Shown here: in pieces, positions 1 to 51,382 of the stretch
Layout of the letters: every line of letters starts with the position of its first letter
Position numbering within the stretch: position 1 is the first letter of the stretch
Assembly: GCA_964627355.1 (NCBI GenBank)
Contig: CAZVIS010000001.1
Location: 37,086 to 101,085 of the forward strand
DNA from: an uncultured Rhodobacterales bacterium
GTDB taxonomy: Bacteria > Pseudomonadota > Alphaproteobacteria > Rhodobacterales > Rhodobacteraceae
Length of the DNA stretch: 64,000 nucleotides
Reading direction: 5' to 3'
Position numbers and translations under genes: made by a program
Notes under the pieces: generated by a model
Seen by the model: only the letters and a program-made list of their open reading frames with translations
Told to the model about the DNA's origin: nothing
The model's database searches: none

Positions 1-720
1 GCCGTTGTAGAAGAAATATCCGATGTCGAGGTTTTTCAGGTGCTCATAGCCGTTCAGCTGCTCGTAGTAGGTATAGGTCACCGTTTCGAACTTGGCCTCG
101 TCGGTCGGCATCAGAACCGCTTCGGCGTCGCCCCGGAAATAGCTGCCGGTCATGGCGACGATGTGCGCCCGATCCCGCGCCATGAAGGCCCCGAGGTGTC
201 CGCCCAGCTTGTTGTCGGGGTTTGCGCTGACATGGTGGAATTCATCGATGGCGATCAGGCGGTCGTCAAAGGCATCGACCCCGAACCGTTCCACGGCGAA
301 GCGGAAAGTGGCATGGGTGCAGACCAACACGCGGTCACTGCTTTCCAGAAACGCACCGACCGAGTTCACCTTGCCGCCATCCGTGCCGGGCGAGTTGCAA
401 AGGTTCCACCGTGGCTCGACCTTCCAGTCAGCCCAGAAGCCGAATTTGGACAGCGGCTCATCGGCGAAACTGGATCCGATCGACTTTTCCGGCACCACGA
501 TGATCGCCTGCTTCAGGCCCTGATTGTGCAGCTTGTCCAGCGCGATGAACATCAACGCCCGGCTTTTGCCGGAAGCGGGGGGCGACTTGATCAGCAGGTA
601 TTGCTCTCCCCGCTTTTCATAGGCCCGTTCCTGCATGACACGCATGCCCAGTTCGTTGGCCGTGGTCGAACTGCCGTTGCGGGCATAGGTGACAGAGACG
701 GAAGGGACGGATTGTACCAT
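1..720 (-). CDS. SF2 DExH-box helicase, N-terminal ~240 aa only (gene runs off the left edge)
   Basis: My own minus-strand translation from the ATG at 720 reads MVQSVPSVSVTYARNG... It shows Walker A LLIKSPPASGKSRAL, motif II LIAIDEFHH and motif III VAMTGSY. It is absent from the ORF track because there is no stop codon inside the window. Confidence 0.8.
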   Translation of the reverse strand, partial: MVQSVPSVSVTYARNGSSTTANELGMRVMQERAYEKRGEQYLLIKSPPASGKSRALMFIALDKLHNQGLKQAIIVVPEKSIGSSFADEPLSKFGFWADWKVEPRWNLCNSPGTDGGKVNSVGAFLESSDRVLVCTHATFRFAVERFGVDAFDDRLIAIDEFHHVSANPDNKLGGHLGAFMARDRAHIVAMTGSYFRGDAEAVLMPTDEAKFETVTYTYYEQLNGYEHLKNLDIGYFFYNG

Positions 721-722
721 GT

Positions 723-1130
723 TCAAATCCTGTACTCAGAAAGCAGTTTGATCGCCCAGCTGGGCGGCGAGGGCCAGCTTCGCCCGCCTGCCAGATGCCA
801 GGTGACGCTGTCGGCGCCGATCAGGCCATTTTGTTCAAGGTGCAGGACAAAGGCATCGTGATCGTAGATGTAGCAATCCTGACCGTGGAAAAAGGCGATG
901 TGGATGGATTTCCCAAGATACTTCTTGTCGATGGTCAGCCGTCCCTTCAGTTGCACTTTCAGGATGGTTTCGCCATCGACGTGACAGGCCATGAAATCGG
1001 CGCCCTGCCAGTCGTCTGTCAGGCGCAGGCAGTTGTAGCCGTAGTCGGCCAGCCGTGCCGCAACCTTCTGGAAATTGTGGTTTTCCTTTTGGCGCGAGTT
1101 CAGGGACTCGTAGGCGACTGGTCTAAACAC
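723..1130 (-). CDS. 135-aa hypothetical protein, possible small PD-(D/E)xK-fold nuclease
   Basis: ORF track. The GTG start overlaps the stop of the upstream MTase by 8 nt, and the gene ends 2 nt before the helicase ATG. The segment GADFMACHVDGETILKVQLKGR fits a D...(E/Q)xK pattern, but only weakly. Confidence 0.45.
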   Translation of the reverse strand: MFRPVAYESLNSRQKENHNFQKVAARLADYGYNCLRLTDDWQGADFMACHVDGETILKVQLKGRLTIDKKYLGKSIHIAFFHGQDCYIYDHDAFVLHLEQNGLIGADSVTWHLAGGRSWPSPPSWAIKLLSEYRI

Positions 1131-3888
1131 GGGCGCTGACCTTTGGTTTTGTCGTCATCTTCGTATACATATCGAATAGCTTCTCCAGCCGTTCGGTGTC
1201 GTTCTTGAAGCGGCGGCCGATGTAGATGCGTTCGAGGGTTTCGTCGTTGCGGTCGTGGGCGGCTCGCAGGTTTTCGGGCATCCTTTCGGGGTCGTAGAGA
1301 TCGGCGATGGTGGCGGGGAAATGCGCTTCGCGGGCGAGGAGGATTTCTTCGGCGCAGGCAGTCAGGTCAGCCTTGTTCTTTTCGGTGAGGGTGGGGACGG
1401 GGAAGGTGTTCCAGCCGAGGGTGTTGGAGTAGCTGAAATCCGTCCGCATCCGAACGCAGACGGTGCCGATCCAGACCCAGTGCAGGCGCGACGCGATCAG
1501 CGCCATGTTCCAGAGCGGGGCGTCGCACAAAGCAAAGTTCCGATCCCCGACAATCGTGTTCTTGCCAAAGTAATCTATTGGAAGAAATTCCCTGTTTTCA
1601 GAGCTAACCCGTGGAACCACGATGCAATCTGTGTCGCAAATCCCCTGAATTTGCCTGAACTTATGGGGGTATTTCGCATAGTCGCGCGTCGATGAAGCTG
1701 AACTTTCCGAACGCATTTTTCGGACGCCCTCAATTCGCGTTGCAATCGGCGCCACATTCATGGCCTTTTGAACTGCATCATCTTCAATCCAGATGCAGTA
1801 ACGAGAGAGCCCATTGATTAGCTCTTGCGCTCCGACGAAGCGACGAACAAACGGTATAGCCGCTGCTTCTGATCGTGCGAGATCATCTTTTTCATCGGCA
1901 CTGAGCAGCAGATTGCCCCCGTCCGTAGGCATGTTTCCTCGGATCATGTAACCCCGAACGTCCTTTGCTCGCGAAAGCGGCTCGATGATCACGTTTTGAC
2001 CCGCCACGAGGTAAGCGTTGATTTGGTCCACTTCTCGCAGGCCCGTTTCACCGACGGTATCGGCAGAGAACAACTTTTTGCGCTTCGTGTCGGGTTCGCC
2101 GACGCCGACGATCACGACCGTTACGCCTGCATTATGGGCGGCCAGATTGGACCATTTAAACGAAGTGTGCGCGAACTTGATCTCCTGGCCGTTTCCAAAA
2201 ATCATCGGCCAGAGTATGGGCACTTGTTCGCCTTGGCATATTGAGTTCGTGCTCACGAAGGCGAAGCAACCCTTTGTTTTCGTCAAGAAATCGGTAGCCT
2301 TTTTGAACCAGCAGGCGACGAGGTCAAGCGAGCGCCAAGTCTTCGTGTGCTGCCCAAACACATGCGACACATCACTTTTTTGGTCTGCACTTTGTCGCGC
2401 ACTGCCAACATACGGCGGGTTTCCGCAAATATACGTCTCTCCACCCTCGTTCTCGAAATCGATCTGCGCCTGATCCAATGGTGTGTGGAACAGATCCTCA
2501 GCCTGAAACCGCACCCCGGTCCCCGTCGGCGGGCAGATCGACAGCCAGTCCAGCCGCAGAGCGTTGCCCTGGGTGATCCAGTTCTGCGCGTTCAGCGGCA
2601 AGAACTCGGCCCGCGCCTGCACCTCACCGCGATAGGTCACGTCGCACTGGAACTCGGCGATGATTAGCGCCAGACGGGCGATCTCGGCGGCGAAATCGCG
2701 CAGCTCGATGCCGCGGAAGTTGGTCTTGGGGATGGCGGTCTTGGCGTCAGCCTCGCCCCGGCGCTGGTTGATCACCGCCTCGATCGCGCGCATTTCTTTG
2801 TAGGCGATGACAAGGAAGTTGCCCGATCCGCAGGCGGGGTCGAACACCCTGATCTTGGCCATCCGGTTGCGCAGGTTCAGTAGTTTGCGGGGGTTGTCGC
2901 CCGCCTCCTCCAGCTGCGCGCGCAGGTCATCGAGGAACAGCGGGTTCAGCACCTTCAGGATATTCGGCACCGAGGTGTAGTGCATGCCAAGCGCGGACCG
3001 CTCACCCTCATCCGCGACGGCCTGGATCATGCTGCCGAAGATGTCGGGGTTGATCTTGGTCCAGTCGAGGCTGCCGATGTGCAGAAGGTAGCTGCGCGCG
3101 ATCTTAGAAAAGCGCGGAACGTCGGTGTCGCCCGAGAAGAGGCCGCCGTTTACATAGGGGAAGGCGTTGGCCCAGTTGCGCAGGTCGGCCGTGGGGCGGG
3201 CGGGCAGCGCGGTGTTCATCGCGCGGAAGATTTCGCTGATGACCCAGTGGGTGTTGGTGCTGGCCGGGTCGCTGAACTGGCTGACGGTGGTGGTGAACAG
3301 GGTGCCGCCGTTGAAGATGCCGGTGTCTTCGGCGAAGAAGCAGAAGATCAGCCGGGCCATGAAGTGGTTCATGTCATGGCGGCGCGCCTCGGTTCCCCAT
3401 TCGGGGTTGTCCTTGAGCAGTTCGACATAAAGTCGGTTCAGGCGGCCAGTCGCCTTGATGTCAAAAGCGCTTTCGCGGATCTGTTTGACGGTGGTGATGC
3501 CCGCGAGCGGCAGGAAAAAGCCGAAATGGTCATGGAAATCGGGATAGGCGCAGGCAACCGGTGGGTCGTCAGAGGTGAGGTCTTCGGCCTCGAGCGTCTC
3601 GCCATCGGTGGCCAGGATGAAGCGGGCCTTGCCCTTCGCCGTGGCCGGACTGGCGCGCAGGGCGGCGATGGTGGTCGAGGTTTGCCCGGGCGCGCAGGTC
3701 GCAATGTGGATATTGTTGGTCTGAAGGACGCCACCCAGATCGGACTTGTTCGACACGCCGGTGCGCAGGCGTTTGAGGGTGGTTTCCTTGTTCCCGAAGG
3801 CTTCAAGGAACTGAAACGGGAATTCCTGCCGGTCAAAGGGTTTTTCGGCCAGTTCGGAAATGGCCTGTTCAATCTCTACGGCGTTCAT
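1123..3888 (-). CDS. MmeI-family (type IIG/IIL-like) N6-adenine DNA methyltransferase; N-terminal nuclease motif appears degenerate
   Basis: Motif I is VFDPACGSGNFLV and motif IV is CGNPPYVGS. The N-terminus (PFQFLEAFG) and C-terminus (DLYDPERMPENLRAAHDRNDETLERIY..FKNDTERLEKLFDMY) are MmeI-like. At the expected ExK position the sequence reads IHIATC. The likely ATG at 3888 overlaps the vapC stop as ATGA. Confidence 0.8.
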   Translation of the reverse strand: MNAVEIEQAISELAEKPFDRQEFPFQFLEAFGNKETTLKRLRTGVSNKSDLGGVLQTNNIHIATCAPGQTSTTIAALRASPATAKGKARFILATDGETLEAEDLTSDDPPVACAYPDFHDHFGFFLPLAGITTVKQIRESAFDIKATGRLNRLYVELLKDNPEWGTEARRHDMNHFMARLIFCFFAEDTGIFNGGTLFTTTVSQFSDPASTNTHWVISEIFRAMNTALPARPTADLRNWANAFPYVNGGLFSGDTDVPRFSKIARSYLLHIGSLDWTKINPDIFGSMIQAVADEGERSALGMHYTSVPNILKVLNPLFLDDLRAQLEEAGDNPRKLLNLRNRMAKIRVFDPACGSGNFLVIAYKEMRAIEAVINQRRGEADAKTAIPKTNFRGIELRDFAAEIARLALIIAEFQCDVTYRGEVQARAEFLPLNAQNWITQGNALRLDWLSICPPTGTGVRFQAEDLFHTPLDQAQIDFENEGGETYICGNPPYVGSARQSADQKSDVSHVFGQHTKTWRSLDLVACWFKKATDFLTKTKGCFAFVSTNSICQGEQVPILWPMIFGNGQEIKFAHTSFKWSNLAAHNAGVTVVIVGVGEPDTKRKKLFSADTVGETGLREVDQINAYLVAGQNVIIEPLSRAKDVRGYMIRGNMPTDGGNLLLSADEKDDLARSEAAAIPFVRRFVGAQELINGLSRYCIWIEDDAVQKAMNVAPIATRIEGVRKMRSESSASSTRDYAKYPHKFRQIQGICDTDCIVVPRVSSENREFLPIDYFGKNTIVGDRNFALCDAPLWNMALIASRLHWVWIGTVCVRMRTDFSYSNTLGWNTFPVPTLTEKNKADLTACAEEILLAREAHFPATIADLYDPERMPENLRAAHDRNDETLERIYIGRRFKNDTERLEKLFDMYTKMTTKPKVSARV

Positions 3889-4307
3889 TCGGCATTCCAA
3901 GGGTTAATCACGCGAACGCCGCAGCCGTCGAAATCCTTGACGTTGCGGGTGGCAATAGGGGCATCTGTGGCGCGGGCGATTGCGGCTATCTGGCAGTCGG
4001 CCTCGGCAATGGGTCGGCCCGCAGCGCGGCGCTGCGCCGCAATCTCGGCGTAGGCTTTGGCAGCAAGGCTATCGAAGGGCAGAACCCGTGACTGGAAATC
4101 CTGATCGATCATCGCGTCGATGGCCAGTTGCAGCCGGTCACGGCGCTGACCTTCCGGAAGGATCGCGACACCGGTGCGCAGTTCCGCCTCGGTGACCGCC
4201 GAGATGAACAGATCGCCTGCGTCATGGTCGCCGAACCAGTCCAGCACGATCTGGGCGGGCTCGGTCCGCATCAGTTCCGAGATTACGTTGGTGTCGAGGA
4301 GGATCAT
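3885..4307 (-). CDS. vapC: PIN-domain toxin VapC/FitB
   Basis: MILLDTNVISELMR... and ...PIATRNVKDF are typical PIN signatures. The gene lies directly downstream of a ribbon-helix-helix (RHH) antitoxin gene. Confidence 0.85.
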   Translation of the reverse strand: MILLDTNVISELMRTEPAQIVLDWFGDHDAGDLFISAVTEAELRTGVAILPEGQRRDRLQLAIDAMIDQDFQSRVLPFDSLAAKAYAEIAAQRRAAGRPIAEADCQIAAIARATDAPIATRNVKDFDGCGVRVINPWNAE

Positions 4308-4310
4308 CGA

Positions 4311-4553
4311 TTACTCGAAGTCCGGTGTGGGCCGCATCGGGCTGCGCTTTGTCGGCGGCAGGTCAATGCCGCCCACCGCCGCGAACCGGGCATGGATGGC
4401 CTGTCCAAGGTTCTTCGGGGCGCTGGGCTGGCCGACAACCTGCCGCAGGATGTCGCGGGCTTCTTCCTCCATCGATCGACCGTGTTCGGCCGCGCGCACC
4501 CGCAGGCGGCGCTTTACATCGTCGTCGAGATTGCGAATCGTGATGCTGGCCAT
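4311..4553 (-). CDS. vapB: Ribbon-helix-helix antitoxin (VapB/FitA-like)
   Basis: MASITIRNLDDDVKRRLRVRAAEHGRSMEEEARDIL is a typical RHH N-terminus. The ATG at 4553 is preceded by GGAGGG. The track ORF starts further upstream, probably spuriously. Confidence 0.8.
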   Translation of the reverse strand: MASITIRNLDDDVKRRLRVRAAEHGRSMEEEARDILRQVVGQPSAPKNLGQAIHARFAAVGGIDLPPTKRSPMRPTPDFE

Positions 4554-4672
4554 GTTGCCCTCCGGTTGCAGCACTGAAGATAGGCAGTGATTGCATTGCA
4601 ATCAAGACAAAGTTGCCTTGCGGACCGGACCAGTTCTTACCAGTCTCCGTGATTATCGCATTGGAAATACAG

Positions 4673-5353
4673 CTATTTACCCGGCGATACGAGCCACGGC
4701 CGCACCTTCGGCATCGCCGCCGTCACCTCGACTTCGCGCAGCATCCCCCCCGCTATCAGCCCATCACGCACCCAGTCGATCGCGAGCCACCAGTCTTCAT
4801 AGCCGCATCGGGCAGATGCGATCTGCTCCGGGTGGGGCCGCCAGGTGACTGGGCAAGCGAGGATGTCTATGGTTCTCCATGTGCCTCGTGCGGTTGGGCC
4901 TTGAACCCGTATCCGCACGGTGCCCACCACGATGGTGGCGGAGCGTTCGCCATGCTGGTTCTGTTTGGTTTCGACCGGCACGCAGCGCGGCACGGCGTCG
5001 GGCATCCAGTCCGGGGTCAGCCCGGCCCTTGCCAGTTCCGCCACCCGGATCGCCATGCGGATGCCGCCGAGACTTTGGGGCATTCCGGCGACGGTGGCGG
5101 CGATCACCTCGGCATCCGGGTGGGTGTAGCTACCCCTCTTGTGCTGGCCGCCGTCCACTTTGCAGCCAAGCATGGCGCGTTGCAGCAGGACATACTCCAG
5201 GCCGAAGCCGAAGCCTTCCTCGGTCACGTCCTTTGGCGGGGGCAGTTCAAGTTGCGCCTTCTCCACACCAAACGTCCATTCGAGAGCCGCCTGCACGCCC
5301 AGCGCGCGTTTGATGCGGGTGCCGCCCGGGGCGATCTTTCCTTGCATCGTCAT
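4673..5353 (-). CDS. Conserved phage hypothetical protein (226 aa), paralog of 59386-60060
   Basis: ORF track. The ATG at 5353 forms an ATGA overlap with the stop at 5350-5352 of the upstream frame-B ORF. The second copy in the window has the same arrangement. Confidence 0.7.
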   Translation of the reverse strand: MTMQGKIAPGGTRIKRALGVQAALEWTFGVEKAQLELPPPKDVTEEGFGFGLEYVLLQRAMLGCKVDGGQHKRGSYTHPDAEVIAATVAGMPQSLGGIRMAIRVAELARAGLTPDWMPDAVPRCVPVETKQNQHGERSATIVVGTVRIRVQGPTARGTWRTIDILACPVTWRPHPEQIASARCGYEDWWLAIDWVRDGLIAGGMLREVEVTAAMPKVRPWLVSPGK

Positions 5354-6523
5354 TCGGGCCAACCTTCAAACAGCATCAACTGGGCCGGGCGCTGGGCCTC
5401 GCCCGATGGCCGCCAGATCCACGGGCCGGAGGCCATGGGCAGCTGCGAGAGCGCGCCACGCATGTGCTGCTGCCAGAGGGTGAACTCCGTTGCCGAGCAC
5501 GCGCAAAGCGCGTGCCCGATGGGCCAGCCCATCAGCCATCCGACGAAGAGCGGGTTCAGCCGCCGCCGCGCCCGACCCTTCAGGATTCGCCGCGAGACGA
5601 CGCGCCCATGCGAGGCAATCATCGAAGCCCAGAGCGGGCGCGAGATCGGGGCGTGCGGCGAGGACCGCTGCCCATCCGGCGTAATCGCCGGGACCGGGCG
5701 GGTGAAGCCCTGTTCCGCCCGGTAGTGCAGGATGTCCATCCGGGACTTGCCATCCGCCCGAGTAATGCTGGCCTCGCTGGATCCTTTCCAGTTCTGCGCC
5801 GCTGGTGTCGGCCATTGCGCGGCCTGCGCTGGAAGAGGTGGCGCCCCACCCGAACCGTAACTCTGGCCCGGGCCGCCCTTCGCGCCATCCGTCGCCTTCG
5901 GCGTCGACCAGTTGGTGATGCCCAGCGCCAGCGCCTCGGCCTTTCGGGTGAAGTCGCTGTTCCCGGCCGGGTTGTAGCGTTCCGTGCCCGGATGCAGGCT
6001 CATCGGTGTGGGCCAGGATGAAGATGCGCAGCCGCTGGTGCGGCGCGCCAACTTCTGCCGCCGAGAACAGGCCCGCCGCAGGCGTGTAGCCCATTGCCCA
6101 AAGCTCTCGCAGGACGGCTTCAAGGCCGAGGGTGACATGACCGGGGACGTTTTCGAGGAAGACCCACTTTGGGCGGCACTCGACGATGACGCGTGCGACA
6201 TCTGGCCAGAGGTGGCGGGGGTCGTCGGCGCCACCGCGCTTTCCGGCCGCGCTGAAGGGTTGGCAGGGATATCCGGCCAAGACCATGTCGAAAGCCCCGC
6301 GAAAGGGGCGGGCATAGAAGTTTCGCAGATCATCCCAGATTGGGGCAGGTGCGAAGTATCCTGCGCGCTGGGCGGCGATGAGGACGGCGCGGGGCCAGTC
6401 CTCCCACTCGACAAAAGCGCGGGTGTGATATCCGGGCTCTGCGAGCATGAGGCCCATATCCAGCCCTCCGCCGCCTGCGCAGAGGGATAATCCGTGCCGG
6501 GGACGTGACACCATGCCATTCAC
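5350..6523 (-). CDS. Phage C5-cytosine DNA methyltransferase whose coding signal changes frame after motif VIII (frameshifted or split gene)
   Basis: The frame of ORF 5366-6586 carries motif I LCAGGGG, motif IV YPCQPFS, motif VI FLENV and motif VIII QRLRIFILAH. The frame of ORF 5350-6519 carries WSTPKATDGAKGG, WPTPAAQNWKGS and RRLNPLFVGWLMGWPIGH. The GTG at 6523 overlaps the upstream stop as GTGA. Confidence 0.7.
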
Positions 6524-7488
6524 GCCACCACGCGCAGGTTGAGGCGCTCGCGCGTCACCAGCCCGCGTGCCAGCATCAGTCCGCACATCGTGGCACTGAT
6601 CATTCCCTTGGGCAGGTATTCGTCGGAGTTGACCTTGGCGGCATAGAAGGCCGCCAACTCATCCTCGCTGGGCGGAGGCGCTGCATCTGCCTTGCGCCGC
6701 CGCTTGGCCTTTGTGCCCTTTGCGGTCGCAAGTGCCGCCTGCGCATCGCGCTGGGCCGCCCGTTCCATGAACCGGTCGAGGGCCTTGGGGCCATCGGGCG
6801 GGTTCGGGTGATCGGTACGGGTCTCGAGCGCGACCTCGATGATCCGCGCATGCGACAACCCGAGGTTGTCGATCCAGCGCCGAACATGCGTCTTGGCTGG
6901 CCAGCCCTGCCACCAGGCGGGCAGGGTGGCATTGGCGGCAAAGCCCAGCGCCGTCAGCAGTTCTGCGAAGAACCGATCAAATTCGGCCTCGCGCGCAGCT
7001 GCGTCCTCCTCCTCCTTTACAGGTTTACTTAGGGGTTCTCTTACAAGGTTAGTCTCCGGATTCCGGAGATGGCTTTGGGCAAAATCCGGAGATGGGTTTG
7101 TCAGAAATCCGGAGGTGGCCCCATGTCCGGAATCCGGAGATGGGTTGTCGTCCTGTTCTTCCTCCGTTCCGGAAAGCCCATCTCCGCTTTCCGGACATGG
7201 CTCTTGTGGAAATCCATCCTCGAATCCCAAGATGTAGCGGGTGGCTTGCCGCTTGTGGGTGCGCGGATCGTGCACGCGGACGCGGTGGATCAGGCGCAAT
7301 TCCTCGAGTTTGGCCAGATGCGCGTTCAGCGCCGAGATCGACATTTCCGAGTCGTCGGCCAGCCGTTCCTGTGTGGGGAAGCAGCCGAAGTCGGGGTTGT
7401 GCCGGTCGCAGAGAAACCAGAGCACGATCTTGGTGGCGGGTTTAAGCCCGCGCTGCTGGATCGCCCAGACGGTGGCTTTGTGGCTCAT
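6520..7488 (-). CDS. wHTH replication-initiator-like protein (lambda O-like organisation)
   Basis: The N-terminus MSHKATVWAIQQRGLKPATKIVLWFLCDRHNPDFGCFPTQERLADDSEMSISALNAHLAKLEE looks like a winged HTH. A low-complexity linker is encoded by an iteron array. A paralog lies at 61320-62273. Confidence 0.6.
   Translation of the reverse strand: MSHKATVWAIQQRGLKPATKIVLWFLCDRHNPDFGCFPTQERLADDSEMSISALNAHLAKLEELRLIHRVRVHDPRTHKRQATRYILGFEDGFPQEPCPESGDGLSGTEEEQDDNPSPDSGHGATSGFLTNPSPDFAQSHLRNPETNLVREPLSKPVKEEEDAAAREAEFDRFFAELLTALGFAANATLPAWWQGWPAKTHVRRWIDNLGLSHARIIEVALETRTDHPNPPDGPKALDRFMERAAQRDAQAALATAKGTKAKRRRKADAAPPPSEDELAAFYAAKVNSDEYLPKGMISATMCGLMLARGLVTRERLNLRVVA
7062..7143. repeat. Four direct iterons TCCGGAG(A/G)TGG inside the rep-like gene (putative phage origin)
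   Basis: Copies start at 7062, 7085, 7108 and 7133, a spacing of 23, 23 and 25 bp. Related inverted or partial copies lie at 7178-7200. A lower-GC stretch at 7021-7054 is adjacent. The same array occurs at 61847-61928. Confidence 0.7.
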
Positions 7489-7880
7489 GGGGCGGCCCTC
7501 CGTGCTGGAAGCTGCGCCCGGCTGGTGAAGCCGTTGTCGGCCAAGGCACCCAGCGCGTCGTCAACCGAGCGCACCAGCGCCCAGCCAAAGCCCTGCGCGC
7601 AGACGGTGTCGCGGAAGACCTCCTGAGATTTGCGCAATCGGCCGGTTTCGCTTTTGACCTCGAGGAACAGCACGCGGCCGCCGCAGATCACGATCAGGTC
7701 GGCAAACCCGGCATGGACGCCCATGCCGACGAGGATCGATTGCCGCCTTGCGCCGCGGGGCCCGGCCTCGGTCACCTCGTTGGCGCAGTGATGGACGATG
7801 GCATCTCGGGGCAGGGCGAAGCGCAGGGCTTGGACAATGGCGCGCTGGGCGTCGGCTTCGGGGGTGCTGCGCCGATTCAT
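7485..7880 (-). CDS. VRR-NUC domain nuclease
   Basis: GFADLIVICGGRVLFLEVKSETGRLRKSQEVF shows the D...ExK and Q signature. The ATG at 7880 gives MNRRSTPEADAQRAIV. The stop overlaps the next gene. Confidence 0.75.
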   Translation of the reverse strand: MNRRSTPEADAQRAIVQALRFALPRDAIVHHCANEVTEAGPRGARRQSILVGMGVHAGFADLIVICGGRVLFLEVKSETGRLRKSQEVFRDTVCAQGFGWALVRSVDDALGALADNGFTSRAQLPARRAAP

Positions 7881-8143
7881 GCGGCACCGCCATTCGGGAA
7901 GGCCGCCGCCGCGATGGCATGCAGCGGGCGCCGATCCAGCAAGCGCAGCACCTCCAGCGCGTCGCCACATTCACGCGCATCGTCGGTTTGGCCGACCAGG
8001 ACACGGGCGGCGAGAATGATCAGGCTGTCCGGATGTTGCGTGGTATCGGCCAGAACGCCGCGCGCTTCGGTCAGGCGGTCTTGCATCCAATCGCCGGTGG
8101 TCGAGGTCGGAATGACGGGCGGGGAGGGCAACGGCGCGTTCAT
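7877..8143 (-). CDS. 88-aa conserved phage hypothetical protein
   Basis: ORF track. A paralog lies at 62659-62925; both share DWMQDRLTEARG...ILAARV....RRPLHAIA.AAF. Confidence 0.55.
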   Translation of the reverse strand: MNAPLPSPPVIPTSTTGDWMQDRLTEARGVLADTTQHPDSLIILAARVLVGQTDDARECGDALEVLRLLDRRPLHAIAAAAFPNGGAA

Positions 8144-8406
8144 CGCCGACCCCGCGACGGTGTTTTGCGGGCCTGTTCTCTGGTCTCAAGCCAGCTGCGC
8201 ACCGTGCTGCGCCGGTAATAGACCTTGCGCCCGAGCTTGATGCTTTGCGGCCCGGTGCGCCGCATATCCCAGCGCCAAAGCGTGTCCTCGGACACCCCGA
8301 GGCTGATCGCCAGATCATGCCGACTGATCCAGTCATCCAGCAGACCGATATCGGGCGCCGGTTGATTAATATCCTGCGTATCCAACATCCGTGATTCTCT
8401 CCCCAT
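8140..8406 (-). CDS. AlpA/MerR-type HTH, excisionase-like regulator
   Basis: ISRHDLAISLGVSEDTLWRWDMRRTGPQSIKLGRKVYYRRSTVRSWLE is HTH_17-like. The start may be at 8388 instead of 8406. A paralog lies at 62922-63170. Confidence 0.65.
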   Translation of the reverse strand: MGRESRMLDTQDINQPAPDIGLLDDWISRHDLAISLGVSEDTLWRWDMRRTGPQSIKLGRKVYYRRSTVRSWLETREQARKTPSRGRR

Positions 8407-8462
8407 TTGCGCCCGACTGCGGGCGGTTGCGACTCGGGTGCAGGGGAGCAGAGGAGGGGGGA

Positions 8463-8523
8463 TGGCAGGGTGGCATAAACCGGCATATTCAAAACGCAGT
8501 TCGTGCCACCCCTTGTTTTATTG
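8463..8523. promoter_or_regulatory. Shared ~60-bp element with an exact 17-mer TGGCAGGGTGGCATAAA, upstream of the AlpA-like gene
   Basis: The 17-mer is identical to 10641-10657, with partial similarity for about 45 bp beyond it. Both copies have the same orientation and a similar distance upstream of a minus-strand gene start. Confidence 0.5.
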
Positions 8524-8679
8524 ACGTTTTCTTCTGGTCGTATCGCCGGAATGGCGGCGAGTGATCTGGCGCAACAACAACCGAAGATTGCGTCGTCAGG
8601 GTGCCGCCGGGGAACCCTCAGCACGTCAGTGACCGGTGCCGCGCGCTCCCCCTATGGTAACTTTGACAAGGACGAAGCG

Positions 8680-9279
8680 ATGGCTTTACCGGCACGTGTG
8701 TTTTGGAAGTTGGAAAATTTGGCAGTACGCTGGGGGTGCTTACCTGCCGATATTGTGGGTTGGGCCACCGAAGGCATCATTGAAATCGTCACCAGCATCG
8801 GGAAAGTTCAGTGCAGCGGAACCGAGCCGCAGGTCGGGCTGGTGGTGGTCTGCGCAGAAGACATCATGCCGCTATTTCGCGGCAATCGCTCGGAACCGAA
8901 AACCTGCATGATCTGGCGCATCCGGCCGCAGGATACTTGTACATGGAAGATCATCACCGATCCTGCCCAAGGAGTAACAATCGAACTGGAAGATCTGCTG
9001 GTGACGGCAAAAACCGCACAGCGTTTTGAAGATGAATACGATCCGCTGCACCGCGTTCATGTCAGCCCCGGGCGATCATCACGGCACGATTGGGAGGGGA
9101 TGCTTCAGGCCCTGATGATCCGGTTGTTCGAGCACGGATTGCCGGAGTCACAGGCTGACTTTGTGGCGGAGGGCCAGGAATGGTTCGTCGCAAACGCCAA
9201 GGACGGTTCTGTTCCGGACGAAAGCCAGATCCGGCGTAAGCTCAGCCCGATCTGGAGGGCGCTGAAGAAGCCGCAGTAG
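8680..9279 (+). CDS. 200-aa hypothetical protein (paralog starts at 63814)
   Basis: An internal ATG at 8680 gives MALPARVFWKLENLAVRWGCLPADIVGW. This parallels MTLPTRAFFSLNEFCDRLECSHADVAAW at 63814. Confidence 0.55.
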   Translation: MALPARVFWKLENLAVRWGCLPADIVGWATEGIIEIVTSIGKVQCSGTEPQVGLVVVCAEDIMPLFRGNRSEPKTCMIWRIRPQDTCTWKIITDPAQGVTIELEDLLVTAKTAQRFEDEYDPLHRVHVSPGRSSRHDWEGMLQALMIRLFEHGLPESQADFVAEGQEWFVANAKDGSVPDESQIRRKLSPIWRALKKPQ

Positions 9280-9313
9280 GGGCAACTCAGGATAAACGAC
9301 GGCGCTGATGCCC

Positions 9314-9344
9314 GTTCAGGGCGAGTTCAACGCCCGCCCTGAAC
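9314..9344. terminator. Hairpin between the convergent genes 8680-9279 and the integrase gene
   Basis: GTTCAGGGC (9314-9322) pairs with GCCCTGAAC (9336-9344) around a 13-nt loop. The second arm lies inside the 3' end of the integrase gene. Confidence 0.3.
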
Positions 9345-10565
9345 AATGCGCAGCTGCGGCTTCATCATTTCCGCGACCGCATTGACCCCGTCCCGCAGCG
9401 GCGAGTCCATCATATGTGCATAGCGTTGCGTGGTGCGCATCTGGGAATGGCCCAGCAGCTTGCCGATCATTTCCAATGAGGCGCCGCCGCTGACCAGCAG
9501 GGAGGCGAAGGTGTGGCGCAGGTCATGGATCCGCACACCCGCAATTCCAGCCTTGATCTGGATCTGACGCCAGAAGCAGCGGATTTCCTTGACCGGCTGG
9601 CCCGGCACATCGCCGGGGAACAGCCACGGACAATCCTTGTGCACAGCCGTTTGCCGCTGGCGCACGATGGCGGCAACATCCGGTGAAATCGGCAGACGGT
9701 GGATCTTGCGCTGCTTGGTGGTGGTCGCGGGCTTCGACCATGTGGCAAACTCGAGGTTGAACTGCTCAAAGCGTGCGCAGCGCACCTCGCTAAGGCGGGC
9801 ACCTGTCAACATGCACATGCGGATGATGTTGGCGGCACGCTGGTCCTCGGCCACGCCCAGCGCGCTGGCCAGACGATCAATCTCATCCATGCTCAGATAG
9901 CGTTCGCGTTCGGTCTCGATACGCCGGTGAAACCCCATCGCCGGGTTGTCGGGGCGCATCTTCCACTGGACGGCAAGGTTGAACATCTTGCGCAGAACCT
10001 CGCCGGTTCGGTTGGCGCGGATCGGCGTCGGTTTCGATCCCTGCAGTTTGCGCGCGCGATTGTTGGGTTTGGCCTTGGACGGGCGGGCGCGGCCCATGGC
10101 CACTTGGGCAAGCAATCTGTCGACATCATCCAGCGTGACCTCCTCGACCAGCTTGTGCTTCCAGACCGGCTGGACCAGTTTGCGTAGCATGGATATCTGG
10201 TCAGAGCGATTGGTCGGTGCCAGATTGGGCAGATGGGTTTCGATATAGCGGTCGATCAGATCGGGGACCCGGGGGGCGGTCATCCCGGTTTCCCGTTCAC
10301 CTAGCGGGTCGCCACCATCGTCGATGATGCGGCGCAGCGCCTTGGCCTGTTCGCGCGCAGCGGTGACTGTCCACTCTGGCCATCTGCCGATGGTGAAGCG
10401 GCGCTGGCGACCCTTGACCCGGTAATCCAGCGTGAAATTCCTGCTGCCAGATGTGAAGACGCGCAGCGAAAACCCCCGCACGTCCTCGTCGAAAACCTGG
10501 TAAATGCCCGCCCGAGGCTCGGCGGCTCTGACCAGTTTTTCGGTCAGTTTCTCTCTTTGCGCCAT
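9327..10565 (-). CDS. int: Tyrosine recombinase / phage integrase
   Basis: The C-terminus reads ARLSEVRCARF...HDLRHTFASLLVSGGASLEMIGKLLGHSQMRTTQRYAH (R, HxxR and Y catalytic pattern). The ATG at 10565 gives MAQREKLTEKLV and is preceded by GGAGGTGG. Confidence 0.9.
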   Translation of the reverse strand: MAQREKLTEKLVRAAEPRAGIYQVFDEDVRGFSLRVFTSGSRNFTLDYRVKGRQRRFTIGRWPEWTVTAAREQAKALRRIIDDGGDPLGERETGMTAPRVPDLIDRYIETHLPNLAPTNRSDQISMLRKLVQPVWKHKLVEEVTLDDVDRLLAQVAMGRARPSKAKPNNRARKLQGSKPTPIRANRTGEVLRKMFNLAVQWKMRPDNPAMGFHRRIETERERYLSMDEIDRLASALGVAEDQRAANIIRMCMLTGARLSEVRCARFEQFNLEFATWSKPATTTKQRKIHRLPISPDVAAIVRQRQTAVHKDCPWLFPGDVPGQPVKEIRCFWRQIQIKAGIAGVRIHDLRHTFASLLVSGGASLEMIGKLLGHSQMRTTQRYAHMMDSPLRDGVNAVAEMMKPQLRIVQGGR

Positions 10566-10640
10566 GATGAACCACCTCCGTGCTGACGTGACACAGGCGT
10601 GATCCGCGCTGCAGTTCAACTCAAACATCGGCCGAAGGGG

Positions 10641-10701
10641 TGGCAGGGTGGCATAAAGTGGCAGATTGAAACGGACGTCTGTGCCGGTCACTTTTTTGTT
10701 C
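10641..10701. promoter_or_regulatory. Second copy of the TGGCAGGGTGGCATAAA element, upstream of int
   Basis: See 8463-8523. It contains three TGGCA half-sites at 8-10 bp spacing. Confidence 0.5.
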
Positions 10702-11040
10702 TGCAAGGCAGGGGGCGCTGGGCCAGACTATCCCCCGCTGACCCAGAAGCGCTGCGAGCTCGCACCTATCATTCGGATGAACGGAAGCAAGACGGAACTC
10801 TCGCGGTCGCCATCGCGCGTACGTTCTGTTCTCGGTGAGTGGGGGTAACAACCAGGCAACAAGATGTGCGGGGTAGCGGGCCACCGCTACCGCCGAGTCG
10901 GGGAAACCTGACGACCGCTGACCTGCCCCGGCCGACACACAGTGCTTGATGAGAAAAAGAAATACCGGTAGGCTTGGCGCCTGATGGTGACGGCGTTGCG
11001 TACCGCTCCGCTTGCAAACTGAGAATAAGAAAAGTGAATC

Positions 11041-12099
11041 GTGACAGCAGGGCAGTGCGCAAATCAGTTAACAGCGATTGATCTATTTTGTGGCGCCGGG
11101 GGCCTGACCCTCGGTTTGCAGCAGGCTGGATTCAAGGTTCTCGCGGGCGTCGAACTCGAGGAAATTCCTTCAAATACCTACAGGACGAACCACCCCGACA
11201 CACTCTGTTTTCAGAGTGACATTCGCCAATTGGGCGCTGCACAATTACTTAAGGCTGTTGGATTGAAGCGGGGCCAGCTTGACCTTTTGGCGGGGTGCCC
11301 CCCGTGCCAAGGCTTCTCAACACTTCGCACCCGCAAGAAGCAAATGGCGGTCACGGACGAACGAAATGATCTACTTTTTGAATTTCTTCGAATGGTCGAG
11401 GCATTGTCACCACGCGCATTAATGATGGAGAATGTTCCATCGCTAGCCAGTGACAGTCGAATGACGCAGTTTGTAAAGTGCATTTCGCGCCTCGGGTACC
11501 GTGTGAATCGTAAGAACGTGCGGGTGGTGAACGCCGCAGATTACGGTGTGCCTCAGCGGCGACAAAGGATGATTCTACTGGCTTCGAAAACAGGTCAGAT
11601 AAAGGATGCGGTACGCACCGAGACGTTAACAGTACGCCAATGCTTGGAGAGCGTCGGACTCCGGCCAGTCGGCGAGGCGGACGATCCGCTGCACGACCAT
11701 ATGCCGATCCGAACTGAGCGTGTGCAGGAGATCATTCGTAGCATCCCCAAAGATGGTGGTTCTCGTAGCGCCTTGCCCGAACATCTCGTGCTGTCGTGCC
11801 ACAAGAGCAAGGCCTCAGGATTCCGCGACGTGTATGGGCGCATGGCGTGGGATCGAGTGGCACCAACGATCACTGGAGGGTGCGGCAACCCCTCTAAGGG
11901 CCGCTACCTTCACCCAGAGGAAGACCGCGCAATAAGCCTCCGCGAGGCGGCTCTATTGCAGACTTTCCCAGTCAATTACCAGTTTGATTTATCCAAGGGA
12001 CGGGACAAGGTGGCACTTATGATCGGCAACGCGCTGCCCCCGGAGTTCATCAGGCGACACGCCTTTGCGATAGCGCAATCGCTTTCATCGGAAGACTGA
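11041..12099 (+). CDS. Dcm-type C5-cytosine DNA methyltransferase
   Basis: Motif I is DLFCGAGGLTLG, motif IV is GCPPCQGFS, motif VI is MMENVP and motif VIII is QRRQRMILLA. The start is GTG. GC is about 50% against mid-60s in the flanks. Confidence 0.9.
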   Translation: MTAGQCANQLTAIDLFCGAGGLTLGLQQAGFKVLAGVELEEIPSNTYRTNHPDTLCFQSDIRQLGAAQLLKAVGLKRGQLDLLAGCPPCQGFSTLRTRKKQMAVTDERNDLLFEFLRMVEALSPRALMMENVPSLASDSRMTQFVKCISRLGYRVNRKNVRVVNAADYGVPQRRQRMILLASKTGQIKDAVRTETLTVRQCLESVGLRPVGEADDPLHDHMPIRTERVQEIIRSIPKDGGSRSALPEHLVLSCHKSKASGFRDVYGRMAWDRVAPTITGGCGNPSKGRYLHPEEDRAISLREAALLQTFPVNYQFDLSKGRDKVALMIGNALPPEFIRRHAFAIAQSLSSED

Positions 12100-12100
12100 C

Positions 12101-14068
12101 ATGATTACAAACACCCAACTTCACCTGGGGTTTCATGGTCGGATAATCGAGCATATCGGTATCCAGATGTACCAGAGCCCTACCGCTGCCCTGGCTGAAA
12201 TTGTTTCTAATGCTTGGGACGCGGACGCTACTGAAGTTGATATTTTGTTTGACTTCGACGCGGACCGAAAGACTGAGTGGACGATCACCATTCTGGACAA
12301 CGGCAATGGCATGACGAAGGAAGAATGTCAGCAGAAGTTTCTAAGCGTTGGCTTCAACAGGCGAGAGCAGGACGGTCCAAAAGCGACATCGTCCCAAAAG
12401 CTGCGCCCGTTGATGGGCCGGAAGGGGATTGGCAAGTTCGCAGGCTTTGGAATCGCGCGCTTTATCAAGATTGATACGGTGAGTAGGGAAACCGGCGAAC
12501 AGACAGTTTTTGAGTTGGATCAAGAAGTCATACGGAAAGGTGACAGCTACGTATCGACGAGTGCGCTGGATATTGCCGCGACCCACTCTGAGAGCGCGAC
12601 CAATCGCCATCATGGCACAAAGATAATACTGCGCGACCTGGACCTAGCCCGCCGAATACCAATGGAACAGTTTCGCGCCTCACTTGCCCGGCGCTTTTTG
12701 ATAAACAGCATTGCGGACGAGTTTGTCGTGAAGGTGAACGAAGTTGCAATCTCGGACAGCACAGACATTTCTACCATTGAGATGAGTTTTCCGCGCGACC
12801 TGCCGGACAATGACAGAACTGAGCGCGGGGTGACGGTCGATAGTGACGGTTGGGGCACGGAGACCGTTTCCGAGGGGAAGGTGGTACGCTGGCGAGTTCA
12901 GTTCTTTAAGGAATTGGTCAAGAACGAAGAGCTTTTCGGTGTTACAATCTTCGCTCATAAAAAGCTGGCACAGAGACCGTTCATGTTCAATCTGTCGGGC
13001 GGTTTGGCAAGTCAGGCAGGGCCAGAATACATGTCGGGACAGGTTGTGGCAGACTGGGTGGACGAGTTTGGCGACGACGTGATCTCTACCGAGCGACAGA
13101 GGTTACGGTGGGAACACGCAGAACTTGCCGAGTTGCAAGCTTGGGGACAGGCGCTGATCCGTCGGCTACTCTCGATTTGGAAAAGCAACCGCAACAGCGA
13201 AAAGCTGCGGCTGTTGGAGGCCAAGGTCGGGACGTTCGCGGAACGCTTGAAGGCGCTGGGTTCCGAAGGTGCAACTGTCCGCACTGCACTATCTAAACTG
13301 GCATCAGTCGAAAAACTCTCTTCAAGCCAGTTTCAGGATTTAGGCTCAGCTATCCTGCTCGCGTGGGAGGGGGGGCGCCTAAAAGGACTGATTCAAAAAA
13401 TCGCGCGAACGGATGACATGGACGAGGCCGAGCTCGTCGGGATACTTGCTGAAGCCAATGCGATTACAGCGCTGCATACTGCGGAAACTGTCAATGCGAA
13501 GTTACAGGCGATCAGCGGTCTGGAATCGAGGATTGCCCGAAAAGAGCTGGAGAATGCGGTCAGGGACTACATCGCGCAGAACCCATGGCTGATTTCTCCT
13601 CGTTGGGAAACCTTCGCTGTCGAAAAACGGCTTGCCACGATTTGCGACAGTGCCGCTGGCGAGTCCTTCAAGAACAGTGATGACTTCAACAAAAGAGTGG
13701 ACCTAATTCTGACCAGTGACCAGCAGCTCCTGGTCCTGGAGTTCATGCGGCCAGGGATCACGCTCGACGCAGACCATCTCAGACGTTTCGGCCAATATAT
13801 GGATATTCTGCAAGAATACATCGAGCAGAACACTGGATTGGGTTTGAAATATTTGACCGGTTACATCGTCGCTGACAAGCTCGCCCAGCGATCAGGGCAC
13901 GCGACTCAAATCAAGAACATGAACAATATTGGTCGGTACGCCATGGACTGGGAAACGCTAATCCAACAGGCCAAGCATCAGTGGAAAGAATTTTTGGTTC
14001 ATGTGAAAGAGCGTTCGCCACATGACGCCCGCCTCAACGCGGTGGGAACAGAAATTGTTGAAAGTTGA
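12101..14068 (+). CDS. GHKL (Bergerat-fold, MORC/MutL-like) ATPase with a nuclease-like C-terminal motif
   Basis: The N-box is LAEIVSNAWDADA, G1 is ILDNGNGMT and G2 is MGRKGIGKFAGFG. The C-terminus KRVDLILTSDQQLLVLEFMRPG resembles a PD-(D/E)xK (Shedu/DUF4263-like) core. The ATG lies 1 nt after the MTase stop. Confidence 0.75.
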   Translation: MITNTQLHLGFHGRIIEHIGIQMYQSPTAALAEIVSNAWDADATEVDILFDFDADRKTEWTITILDNGNGMTKEECQQKFLSVGFNRREQDGPKATSSQKLRPLMGRKGIGKFAGFGIARFIKIDTVSRETGEQTVFELDQEVIRKGDSYVSTSALDIAATHSESATNRHHGTKIILRDLDLARRIPMEQFRASLARRFLINSIADEFVVKVNEVAISDSTDISTIEMSFPRDLPDNDRTERGVTVDSDGWGTETVSEGKVVRWRVQFFKELVKNEELFGVTIFAHKKLAQRPFMFNLSGGLASQAGPEYMSGQVVADWVDEFGDDVISTERQRLRWEHAELAELQAWGQALIRRLLSIWKSNRNSEKLRLLEAKVGTFAERLKALGSEGATVRTALSKLASVEKLSSSQFQDLGSAILLAWEGGRLKGLIQKIARTDDMDEAELVGILAEANAITALHTAETVNAKLQAISGLESRIARKELENAVRDYIAQNPWLISPRWETFAVEKRLATICDSAAGESFKNSDDFNKRVDLILTSDQQLLVLEFMRPGITLDADHLRRFGQYMDILQEYIEQNTGLGLKYLTGYIVADKLAQRSGHATQIKNMNNIGRYAMDWETLIQQAKHQWKEFLVHVKERSPHDARLNAVGTEIVES

Positions 14069-14460
14069 TCGCGGTTTCTGACGTTCGTTAACGGTCCGTC
14101 GCTGCGCTACCCCACCCCGTGTTCCGTGCGCCAGTGGTCCGATGTCCCGATCAGTTCCACCGCCACGAGGCAGTTTCGGCGGACGCAAAACAGAATCTGG
14201 CATTCGCTGTGACAGGCAAGAAAGCACGGCAAGTGGCAGCTGGAATCGTAAATATTCGGCGCGTTGAAGCGAAAAAGATTGATCATAATCGTACTCGTTC
14301 GAGTCAACGCTAAGTCAACGGACAGACGCGGTTTTGGGCAGATCCAGCGCAGTTGAGTGCAGGCGAATCTTGCGGGATGCAGGGCAATAAAGCGCGTGAT
14401 AACAAAAGCCTGTCGCCTAAGCTGTTGAAATGTATAAGCCCCGGAAATCGCATAGCATTT

Positions 14461-14507
14461 GGCTCATAACCTGAAGGCCGCAGGTTCAAATCCTGCCCCC
14501 GCAACCA
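14461..14507 (+). other. 3' fragment (47 nt) of initiator tRNA-Met: anticodon loop (CAT), T-arm, acceptor 3' strand and CCA. Looks like an att-type scar.
   Basis: GGCTCATAACCTGAAGGCCGCAGGTTCAAATCCTGCCCCCGCAACCA matches the 3' part of bacterial tRNA-fMet. The upstream sequence has no CGCGGGG acceptor strand or D-arm, so the gene is incomplete. Confidence 0.8.
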
Positions 14508-14536
14508 AAAAATCCCAATATATCAATAACCTAGAA

Positions 14537-14560
14537 CCCGACCTAAACAGTCGGGCTTTG
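14537..14560 (+). terminator. Hairpin downstream of the tRNA fragment
   Basis: CCCGAC-ctaaaca-GTCGGG is followed by CTTTGG. The T-tract is weak. Confidence 0.35.
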
Positions 14561-14713
14561 GCTTGTCCGAAACACCTCAACGCCACCTCAACGTTCGACG
14601 AGGCCCCTCACTGAACGGGCAGCAGCGGAGCCAGCATCGTGTGCACCTGCAACAGTGGGCACTAAGACCAGGACGTTCCGCGCTCGACAAGCTGCCATCT
14701 TTGATCGCTGCCT

Positions 14714-17239: not shown

Positions 17240-17610
17240 CAGGCTTCTCCTTCCAAGCGGCGATCGACGGTAACAGCCCCGAGAGCAACCACGCGCTCCT
17301 GCGCGAGTATTGTGGGTTCATTGGTAAAGGCAACGATCAGCTCATCTTCCGTCGTGAACTCATCGCCGTTCAGAACACGGACCGGCAAGCCCGGGTGAAA
17401 CGGCTGGCCGTCAAACACCGCGACACGCATTCCGGCCTCGGTCAGCACCGACTCAAGTCGCGTGAGCGCGTACCGACTTTGCGCGGCCGCTCTCGCGCCG
17501 AGGTCATCACCCACGTTATCTCGAAGACGATCATAGGCGCGCAGGAGCCGCCAGTATTCCACAGCAAGTCGAGCGAACGAAGATGACAGGTTGGCGGCTG
17601 GTTCGGTCAT
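17239..17610 (-). CDS. GrpE-like protein (putative nucleotide-exchange factor), 123 aa
   Basis: The C-terminal half GMRVAVFDGQPFHPGLPVRVLNGDEFTTEDELIVAFTNEPTILAQERVVALGAVTV follows the GrpE beta-domain pattern (G..v....G..FdP..H.A.........V...GY......R.A.V.V). The ATG at 17610 forms an ATGA overlap with the upstream stop. Confidence 0.55.
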   Translation of the reverse strand: MTEPAANLSSSFARLAVEYWRLLRAYDRLRDNVGDDLGARAAAQSRYALTRLESVLTEAGMRVAVFDGQPFHPGLPVRVLNGDEFTTEDELIVAFTNEPTILAQERVVALGAVTVDRRLEGEA

Positions 17611-51041: not shown

Positions 51042-51100
51042 CGTGCTGCTGGCCGGTACTGCGTCCGATGGGCCTGGCACCGGCCAGTTACGTCGCGAGG

Positions 51101-51261: not shown

Positions 51262-51382
51262 CCGGTGAAAGTGCCTGCCGCTAGCGAAACGCCGCGCTGC
51301 GCCCCCCCGCATACAAAAGGGGTCGGGGAGGAACCATGCCAGGGGGGGCGAGCTGCGCGTACTCTGGCGCAATCATGACGGG

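Follow-up and report, generated by a model that had tools for sequence, protein, structure and literature searches.

Defence hotspots are already known from prophages of the P2 and P4 types, where a short locus between conserved phage genes turns over very fast and holds mostly anti-phage systems (PMC9122126; Moura de Sousa et al. 2026, PMC13586616). In those hotspots near-identical backbones carry different cargo, and the cargo is mosaic and common to other mobile elements. Here we describe a site that shares these features, but in a family of lambda/HK97-like siphoviruses that is widespread in Rhodobacterales. The site is found twice in a stretch of 64,000 nucleotides (nt) of an uncultured Rhodobacterales bacterium from a biofilter metagenome (contig CAZVIS010000001.1, positions 37,086 to 101,085; the window hereafter), which contains two copies, A (left) and B (right), of one phage early module. 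Our explanation as a whole, to which we give a probability of about 0.85, is that A and B belong to two related prophages in tandem, each with a fixed and precise slot for defence cargo (slot 1) at the junction of its early and late genes.

Several differences set this site apart from the P2/P4 hotspots. The latter lie next to cos and their cargo measures ~1–5 kb, whereas slot 1 lies at the early/late junction, ~6.7 kb from terS, and takes cargo of ~3 to >10 kb that includes DISARM, Hma, and a whole Cas9 locus. The boundaries of slot 1 have no spacer, and a second slot (slot 2) lies between the attachment (att) site and the integrase gene (int). Accessory genes at the early/late junction, beside a late promoter and a terminator-like hairpin, are also a feature of the moron or cargo sites of lambdoid phages (from Q to the late operon); however, the cargo here stands upstream of the promoter-like block, not downstream, and the gene at its left edge, which encodes a protein of 226 amino acids (aa), is a positional analogue of Q only, with no sequence or fold similarity. 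Slot 2 is comparable to the hotspot between cI and the integrase of K139-like Vibrio prophages (Rousset et al. 2022, PMC9122126) in being variable, rich in defence genes, and beside the integrase, but it is on the att side of int, not between repressor and int, and the phage family is unrelated.

A comparison of the window with itself (blastn) gave two colinear, same-strand matches, 4694–5829 with 59413–60536 (82.2% nt identity) and 5798–8343 with 60598–63128 (78.3%), and blastp recovered the same gene order in both copies, which bears out the colinear paralogous early modules of a preliminary description of this DNA. In copy A the module comprises, on the minus strand, the 226-aa gene (4673–5362; the last early gene and left anchor of the slot, with its conserved part ending at the W223 codon, 4694–4696), a C5-methyltransferase (C5-MTase) gene in two frames (5350–6586), an O-like replication initiator with HTH_36 (rep; 6520–7488), a VRR-NUC gene (7485–7970), an 88-aa gene that is colinear with its counterpart in B (7877–8143), and an AlpA-like HTH_17 gene (8140–8406); the shared part from C5-MTase to AlpA-like spans 5350–8406. 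A 200-aa gene (8680–9279, plus strand; phrog_13283) and the gene of tyrosine integrase A (9327–10706, minus strand, likely start 10565; Phage_integrase and Arm-DNA-bind_3) complete this side, the assignments being from Pfam and PHROGs. Module B (59386–64000, minus strand overall) consists of the 224-aa gene (59386–60060), the two-frame C5-MTase gene (60057–61323), rep (61320–62273), and the VRR-NUC (62270–62752), 88-aa (62659–62925), and AlpA-like (62922–63170) genes, followed by the start of the 200-aa gene on the plus strand (63814–64000).

Protein identities between the copies (blastp) were 78% for the 226/224-aa proteins, 75–76% for both frames of the C5-MTase, 69% for the HTH_36 rep-like proteins, 79% for VRR-NUC, 64% for the 88-aa proteins, 47% for the AlpA-like proteins, and 40% for the divergently placed 200-aa proteins, so that homology at the protein level reaches beyond the nt matches into the AlpA-like and 200-aa genes. 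At the nt level, identity is mosaic, with 35–97% per 100 nt and exact runs of up to 68 bp. The preliminary description had homology stopping abruptly at 4673 and 59386. The break is indeed sharp, but alignment moves it to 4694 and 59413, which leaves the 3′-terminal ~20 nt of the 226/224-aa gene beyond it. Homology does not pass this junction, and a six-frame comparison (tblastx) of the two cargo sides beyond the break gave no real homology.

Two side observations concern this module. The C5-MTase gene shows two overlapping frames that are open over its full length in both copies (5350–6586 and 60057–61323), one frame carrying motifs I–VIII and the other the WPTP repeats together with the C-terminal motif. 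The gene is missing from ~12 of 80 related loci, where rep abuts the 226-aa gene, and because of this absence it is itself optional cargo. The pair of int and the 200-aa gene has two orientations relative to the AlpA-like gene, int plus with the 200-aa gene minus (as in the window) or the reverse (about half of loci L001–L080, at ~3300–6700). The att fragment described below is on the same side for both, and the pair seems to have been inverted as a block between sub-lineages.

A search with an alignment of the 226-aa protein detected 265 relatives among species-representative genomes, nearly all of them Rhodobacterales, and 80 of these loci (L001–L080) were fetched. Across all 80 the backbone order is kept: int and the 200-aa gene, AlpA-like, 88-aa, VRR-NUC, rep, C5-MTase (where present), and 226-aa genes, then a variable interval of 3.3 to >10 kb, then two ParB-methyltransferases (ParB-MTases), small genes, TerS, and TerL. 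For the content of the interval we used 71 regions of at least 3 kb, their upper size being limited by the fetched flank, and called open reading frames (ORFs) with a codon-likelihood gene caller that was checked on the window, where it recovers vapBC and Abi_2. The 397 ORFs fell into 194 protein clusters, none of them universal, and the 71 regions into 42 cargo types. Related prophages, therefore, do not always carry the same genes at this position.

Most of this hypervariable content belongs to known defence families. Of 47 cargo representatives, 33 matched PADLOC families (E<1e-5), and at least one cluster annotated as defence by PADLOC or Pfam was present in 63 of the 71 regions. Restriction-modification (R-M) is represented by several Type I and Type IIG families, Type III, and Type II, and the relatives further carry DISARM (DrmD, DrmMI, DrmA), Hma (HmaABC), Mza together with Vsr and a C5-MTase, a Pbe/Dnd-like ATPase, GmrSD-like Orf5/HEC-06, a DEDDh protein (PDC-S48), a 1700-aa RecQ/UvrD fusion, and Cas9. 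Toxin-antitoxin (TA) pairs, VapBC or Xre-RES, stand at the left edge of 15/71 slots. With turnover this high and known anti-phage systems dominant, the phage defence-cargo hotspot that the preliminary description proposed is supported.

Slot 1 of Yoonia vestfoldensis DSM 16212 (NZ_KB907988.1; L053:9260–18620) resembles a whole type II CRISPR-Cas locus, with a Cas9 of 1071 aa (PADLOC, E=4e-76), two ORFs of the size of Cas1 and Cas2, and an array in which a 36-nt repeat occurs at least 15 times, with spacers of 30 nt. The locus stops at the GGAAKCCA array of the backbone (see below). If this reading is true, a temperate phage carries Cas9 as hotspot cargo.

Both boundaries of slot 1 are nucleotide-precise across the phage family and have no spacer. 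On the left, the conserved protein ends in ..MPKxRPW in every locus, and its last 0–13 residues and stop codon are supplied by the cargo and co-vary with cargo type; in the window the boundary falls after 4694 (A) and 59413 (B), directly past the ..RPW codons. On the right, unrelated cargo runs straight into a conserved C5-8..GGCATGGTTCCTCCCCGG..GTATGCGGGGGGGCGCAGCGCGGC in 29 of 32 loci. In prophage B this element (51095–51354, minus strand) is a hairpin-like C7...G7 motif, CCCCCCC-TGGCATGGTTCCTCCCCG...-GCGGGGGGG, followed by an array of GGAAKCCA repeats, and relatives likewise have ~250 nt rich in these repeats after the motif. Compared with shuffled sequence, the hairpin shows no better folding (z = -0.9), and for this reason we make no claim of RNA structure; an Rfam search over 50000–51500 gave no match for the element. 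Read on the opposite strand, the first hairpin loop is GGAGGAACCATG, a ribosome-binding site and ATG directed into the cargo.

The backbone then continues with a late promoter-like block, TTGACA ... TTGACC-N16-AAGAAT with a GC-rich hairpin and T-rich tail (50165–50295, minus strand; 32-locus alignment and promoter scan). This block, which we infer to act as a late promoter, lies ~70 nt upstream of the start codon of the first of two ParB-N6/N4 methyltransferases (48828–50087 and 46991–48322, minus strand; phrog_498 and phrog_620, also Pfam), the right protein anchor, with a 170-aa gene between the two. ParB-MTases of 80–96% aa identity follow the cargo in at least 32 relatives, and slot 1 is framed in at least 32 loci by two conserved anchors, the 226-aa gene on the left and the hairpin/array with ParB-MTase on the right. 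Two features that had been counted as cargo of B do not belong to it. The repeat array (51095–51354) is present in the right flank of nearly all relatives and, since it is found whatever the cargo, is backbone. The WYL-domain gene (50415–51041, plus strand; Pfam WYL) is a separate small insertion between array and promoter block, seen only in the window and L059 among 32 loci, where array and block are ~800 nt apart.

The region between the two modules gives the arrangement of the prophages. Positions 20175–44691 (minus strand) contain a complete lambda/HK97-like virion module by PHROGs, the late module of prophage B, with portal, protease, major capsid protein, tape measure protein, gpJ-like tail protein, and tail fibre, as well as TerS (44155–44691) and TerL (41305–43356). 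The module runs in the same direction as copy B, which is therefore the early region of a full prophage read from right to left. The att core, recognised first through its blastn conservation among relatives, is the 3′ 47 nt of a tRNA-Met(CAT), from anticodon loop to CCA by reading of the sequence (14461–14507, plus strand), and has one copy within the window, with A to its left and B to its right. Homologues of this 47-mer (85–100% identity) lie 0.5–5.3 kb upstream of the integrase in 32 related loci. ARAGORN called no tRNA, either in the window or in 40 loci, since the 5′ half is missing and the 3′ fragment is all that remains, and Rfam gave nothing meaningful over 10500–20500 and 50000–51500. 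The acceptor strand of the fragment resembles that of an initiator tRNA, and the att gene is probably the initiator tRNA.

The right end of B was obtained from a public unitig of 5.7 kb (L086) that encodes the exact 88-aa protein of copy B and reaches 4251 nt past the right end of the window; exact matches to VapC and to rep of copy B lay on short unitigs only. The 5.7-kb unitig contains the AlpA-like gene, the 200-aa gene, the gene of integrase B (aligned to residues 48–456 of integrase A at 69% identity), and a 668-aa GHKL ATPase, and terminates in the first 30 nt of the att core, ~4.25 kb right of the window. An att core consequently lies at each end of prophage B, the two being identical and ~53.7 kb apart, with the left one abutting the integrase side of A, and since B lies between these two cores, with A directly adjoining, A and B are read as tandem prophages at one att site, head to tail and in the same orientation. 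The two elements had been described as ~9 kb apart; instead they abut, separated only by the 47-nt tRNA-Met fragment, and the intervening ~9 kb is cargo, a Type II R-M system in the att–int slot of A and an Hsp70-like triad at the distal end of B. The order per prophage is att, [slot 2], int and 200-aa gene, AlpA-like, 88-aa, VRR-NUC, O-like rep (with or without C5-MTase), 226-aa gene, [slot 1], G/C hairpin and GGAAKCCA array, late promoter-like block, ParB-MTases, terminase, head, tail, distal cargo, att. In line with temperate phages integrated at a tRNA, tyrosine integrases were found for both A and B, direct att repeats at both ends of B and at the one visible end of A, and a complete virion module for B, that of A lying outside the window. 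Pairs on the same contig and in the same orientation, 47–73 kb apart, were found in five other genomes; isolates with such pairs include Roseovarius sp. MBR-6 and Rhodobacteraceae MBR-64. The divergence of the AlpA-like and 200-aa proteins (47% and 40% identity) would fit two different immunities, that is, heteroimmune prophages.

Two other explanations of this arrangement were considered. Copy A could be a satellite or a defective remnant, with integrase, rep, and cargo but no virion genes, rather than a second complete prophage: the window holds no structural genes of A, the int-alpA-rep order is reminiscent of the phage-inducible chromosomal islands of Proteobacteria, and the family does include remnants, two with IS110 and host genes after the ParB-MTase (L092, L093) and one with IS21 inside the 226-aa gene (L094). 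We regard this as improbable, given that ParB-MTases follow the cargo in relatives with the same cargo (L002, L015), TerS and TerL follow in loci with longer flanks (L037, L052, L063), all genes of A in the window are intact, and the unitig of A extends at least 3.5 kb further left at unchanged depth. The tandem could also be an artefact of assembly, in which A and B from different tRNA-Met loci or strains were joined through the 47-nt att repeat. The source is metagenomic (biofilter), and the att core forms a separate 48-nt unitig (14461–14508, runs X1–X4) of ~6x the flank depth with several alternative continuations, where the other unitigs break; one of its predecessors, TAGCTCGTCA, completes an intact tRNA-Met. 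The depth ratio of A to B is ~0.8 in X2 and X3, but 1.0 in X1, and overall the two are about equally deep in four runs. A repeat of 47 nt is short enough for single Illumina reads to span, the att flanks among relatives are only 74–80% alike, the two att cores lie ~53.7 kb apart around B with one abutting the int side of A, and equally spaced tandem pairs exist in other genomes; we consider a misjoin improbable. The conclusion on the slot does not depend on this question. Single unitigs cover the junction of copy A (3321–4955 or longer) in three or four runs, and one unitig of 8375 nt (51285–59659) runs through the whole of cargo B and across its two junctions in three runs. Loose ends of unitigs in the shared module were tried as A/B recombinants and rejected, as they are expected in a metagenome from other related phages.

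With regard to how slot 1 acquires its content, cargo type is uncoupled from backbone similarity. In the 3 kb upstream of slot 1, the backbones had a median identity of 79.2% in pairs with the same cargo and 79.1% in pairs with different cargo, and the two closest non-identical backbone pairs (93.1% and 92.2%) had no cargo in common. Similarly, integrases 94–95% identical to integrase A accompany Hma or Type I cargo, whereas the cargo type of A accompanies integrases only 67–69% identical to it. The cargos are themselves mosaic: one TA pair is joined to different systems, a module C17-DEDDh-C27 recurs at the right edge after different cargo cores, and the inner positions of Type I and YeeA-type systems also vary. 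Homologous exchange through conserved flanks and shared edge modules has been described for P2 and P4 (PMC9122126, PMC13586616), and the mosaicism and uncoupling seen here fit such exchange. Copies A and B, with their mosaic identity and exact runs of up to 68 bp, could recombine. We propose that slot 1 may tolerate insertions owing to its position, past the end of the early operon and ahead of the late promoter, and that relatives residing in or infecting the same cell may swap whole or partial cassettes there through homologous recombination of the conserved flanks, with tandem lysogeny supplying possible partners. In the lysogen, the cargo would be expressed from its own promoters and would protect host and prophage against other phages, and the TA pairs at the slot edge may help retention.

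The function and the movement of the cargo might nonetheless be read differently. R-M and TA modules can act as post-segregational killers, and the cargo could mainly consist of selfish addiction or stabilisation modules that kill prophage-free cells, as the dominance of R-M in the catalogue and the vapBC or Xre-RES pairs at the left edge of 15/71 slots would allow. We consider this unlikely, since many cargos are not of an addiction type (DISARM, Hma, Mza, Pbe/Dnd-like, Cas9 with a CRISPR array, GmrSD-like Orf5/HEC-06) and the genes of slot 2 include Gabija, PARIS, Lamassu, Tmn, and a SIR2 protein; addiction and defence are in any case not mutually exclusive. As for movement, the precise, spacerless boundaries across 42 unrelated cargo types, the right one at a conserved hairpin-like element, might point to site-specific exchange by a dedicated mechanism, with the RPW-codon end and/or the C7...G7 hairpin as its target, rather than to ordinary homologous recombination. 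The two slot ends share no repeats, however, no recombinase adjoins the slot, the hairpin fold is no better than shuffled (z = -0.9), the same system occurs in unrelated mobile elements without the hairpin (L095), and the edge modules that cargos have in common (TA pairs at the left edge, C17-DEDDh-C27 at the right) fit homologous exchange, which together make such a mechanism rather doubtful. We are equally sceptical of its particular form in which hairpin, repeat array, and the end of the 226-aa gene constitute a recombination site served by a phage protein (the 226-aa protein or VRR-NUC) for dedicated cassette exchange; if true, it would be a phage-borne, integron-like platform for multi-gene defence systems. 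An integron-like cassette array was not what we found, as the slot has no recombinase and a single hairpin at one end, with no equivalent at the left end.

Our preferred explanation, tandem related prophages with a fixed defence-cargo slot, needs to be interpreted with caution in view of several points that weigh against it. Eight of the 71 slots hold no recognised defence gene, and the cargo of one (L052, 11169–13145) is a 658-aa protein that combines an ice-binding-like domain with an autotransporter beta-domain; the defence function of the slot cargo is predicted from annotation. The left part of A is outside the window, and its completeness is deduced from relatives. The link between A and B crosses a 47-nt repeat at which k=31 unitigs break, and for this reason it depends on the original assembly, the equal depth, and the two att cores around B. 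Recombination in the flanks does not explain why 42 unrelated cargos share zero-spacer boundaries. Lastly, the AlphaFold2 model of the 226-aa anchor (pLDDT 89.8) found no match in PDB or BFVD (best E-value ~0.4–0.8).

This anchor protein is widespread, with 2570 homologue clusters and 508 representatives at 50% identity, and has no Pfam family; its only PHROG match is phrog_9306, a family of unknown function. In Paracoccus phage vB_PbeS_Pben1, too, a homologue (31% identity) closes the early genes, ahead of the terminase region. A role of the 226-aa protein as a Q-like late regulator is speculation from its position, because it matches no Pfam family and nothing in PDB or BFVD, and it has neither sequence nor fold similarity to support that role.

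The cargo annotations of the preliminary description hold, in that Pfam and PADLOC recognised VapB, VapC, the MmeI-like protein, and the helicase in A and HsdM, Abi_2, HsdS, HsdR, and the WYL gene in B. Slot 1 of prophage A (1–4693, minus strand) runs off the left end of the window and provides the 226-aa gene with its final 6 codons and its stop. From right to left it contains VapB (FitA-like ribbon-helix-helix, 4311–4601), VapC (PIN, 3885–4307), an MmeI-like IIG/YeeA-type enzyme with five domains (1123–3900; PADLOC REase_MTase_IIG PDLC03598, E=7e-289), a 135-aa gene (723–1130), and the N-terminal part of a helicase (DEAD/ResIII, 1–726, 242 aa in the window), all on the minus strand. The same cargo type is present in L002, L012, L015, and L043 at 78–97% aa identity, and a GIY-YIG gene and then ParB-MTase follow there. 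When compared with YeeA(DnmA)-YeeB-YeeC, the five MmeI domains are present, 242 aa of the helicase are visible, and GIY-YIG is found only in the relatives and L091. The position between MmeI-like gene and helicase is variable, with the 135-aa gene in the window and L002 and unrelated genes of 260–355 aa in L012, L015, and L043. Exact matches to the 135-aa protein are recorded in 129 blocks of public assemblies, among them an unrelated element (L095) with a serine recombinase and D5 primase.

Slot 1 of prophage B (51355–59412, plus strand) holds a Type I R-M system with embedded genes and provides the 224-aa gene, on the minus strand, with its final 8 codons and its stop. HsdM (N6_Mtase and HsdM_N, 51463–53499), HsdS (Methylase_S, within 54319–55920), and HsdR (HSDR_N, ResIII, and T1R_D3, 56373–59372) are all present at full length by Pfam, with Abi_2 (53600–54583; Pfam) and a 137-aa gene (55917–56330) as extra genes between them, all on the plus strand. 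In relatives (L006, L057, L067) the inner position of Type I R-M cargo is taken by Fic or small genes. Type I R-M loci with embedded abortive-infection genes are known (hsd-linked prrC type), and cargo B is similar in having Abi_2 between hsdM and hsdS; it differs in that the embedded gene is Abi_2 or Fic, not an anticodon nuclease, and the functional link is putative.

Slot 2 measures 0.5–5.3 kb between att core and the int/200-aa pair in 32 relatives, and 8 of the 10 largest ORFs of the relatives in it match PADLOC (Tmn, SIR2/ThsA-like, Ppl, fused PARIS (AriAB), LmuB, GajA, HEC-06/Orf5, and PDC-M72A). In prophage A it lies within 10707–14460, from int to att, and contains a C5-MTase (11041–12099, plus strand; Pfam) and a GHKL-ATPase restriction enzyme (12101–14068, plus strand; Pfam, and PADLOC REase_II PDLC03419, E=1.5e-45); in prophage B it holds the 668-aa GHKL ATPase to the right of the window (L086:31–2552). 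The distal cargo of B (14714–19475, minus strand; Pfam) is an Hsp70-like operon of three genes, encoding 841 aa, 135 aa, and 622 aa with a peptidoglycan-binding domain. A homologue of this triad in L040 (38–3494; 59% aa identity over the ATPase part) adjoins the 200-aa gene and integrase. Because the L040 homologue sits beside int and the 200-aa gene, the triad moves between cargo positions.

Our literature search found no paper describing defence hotspots of this Rhodobacterales phage family. What is new is the phage family and its abundance, the presence of two slots per phage, and cargo that extends to whole DISARM or CRISPR-Cas9 loci, as well as the exact boundaries and the recurrent tandem lysogeny at one tRNA-Met site. 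The main use of the finding is as a place to look for new defence systems. With the anchors described here (the 226-aa gene ending in ..RPW on one side; hairpin, array, and ParB-MTase on the other), defence cargo can be retrieved from thousands of Rhodobacterales prophages, even on short metagenome contigs. The 8/71 slots without a known system are candidates, by location, for new defence systems, as are small genes such as the 135-aa and 137-aa genes of the window and clusters C17, C27, and C41 of the relatives. The Rhodobacterales hosts are marine and wastewater bacteria that have been little studied for phage defence. Tandem lysogeny at one tRNA site puts recombination partners side by side and stacks different putative defences in one cell; the stack here comprises two systems of R-M type (slot 1) and two genes of GHKL type (slot 2), together with Abi_2, a TA pair, and the Hsp70 triad.

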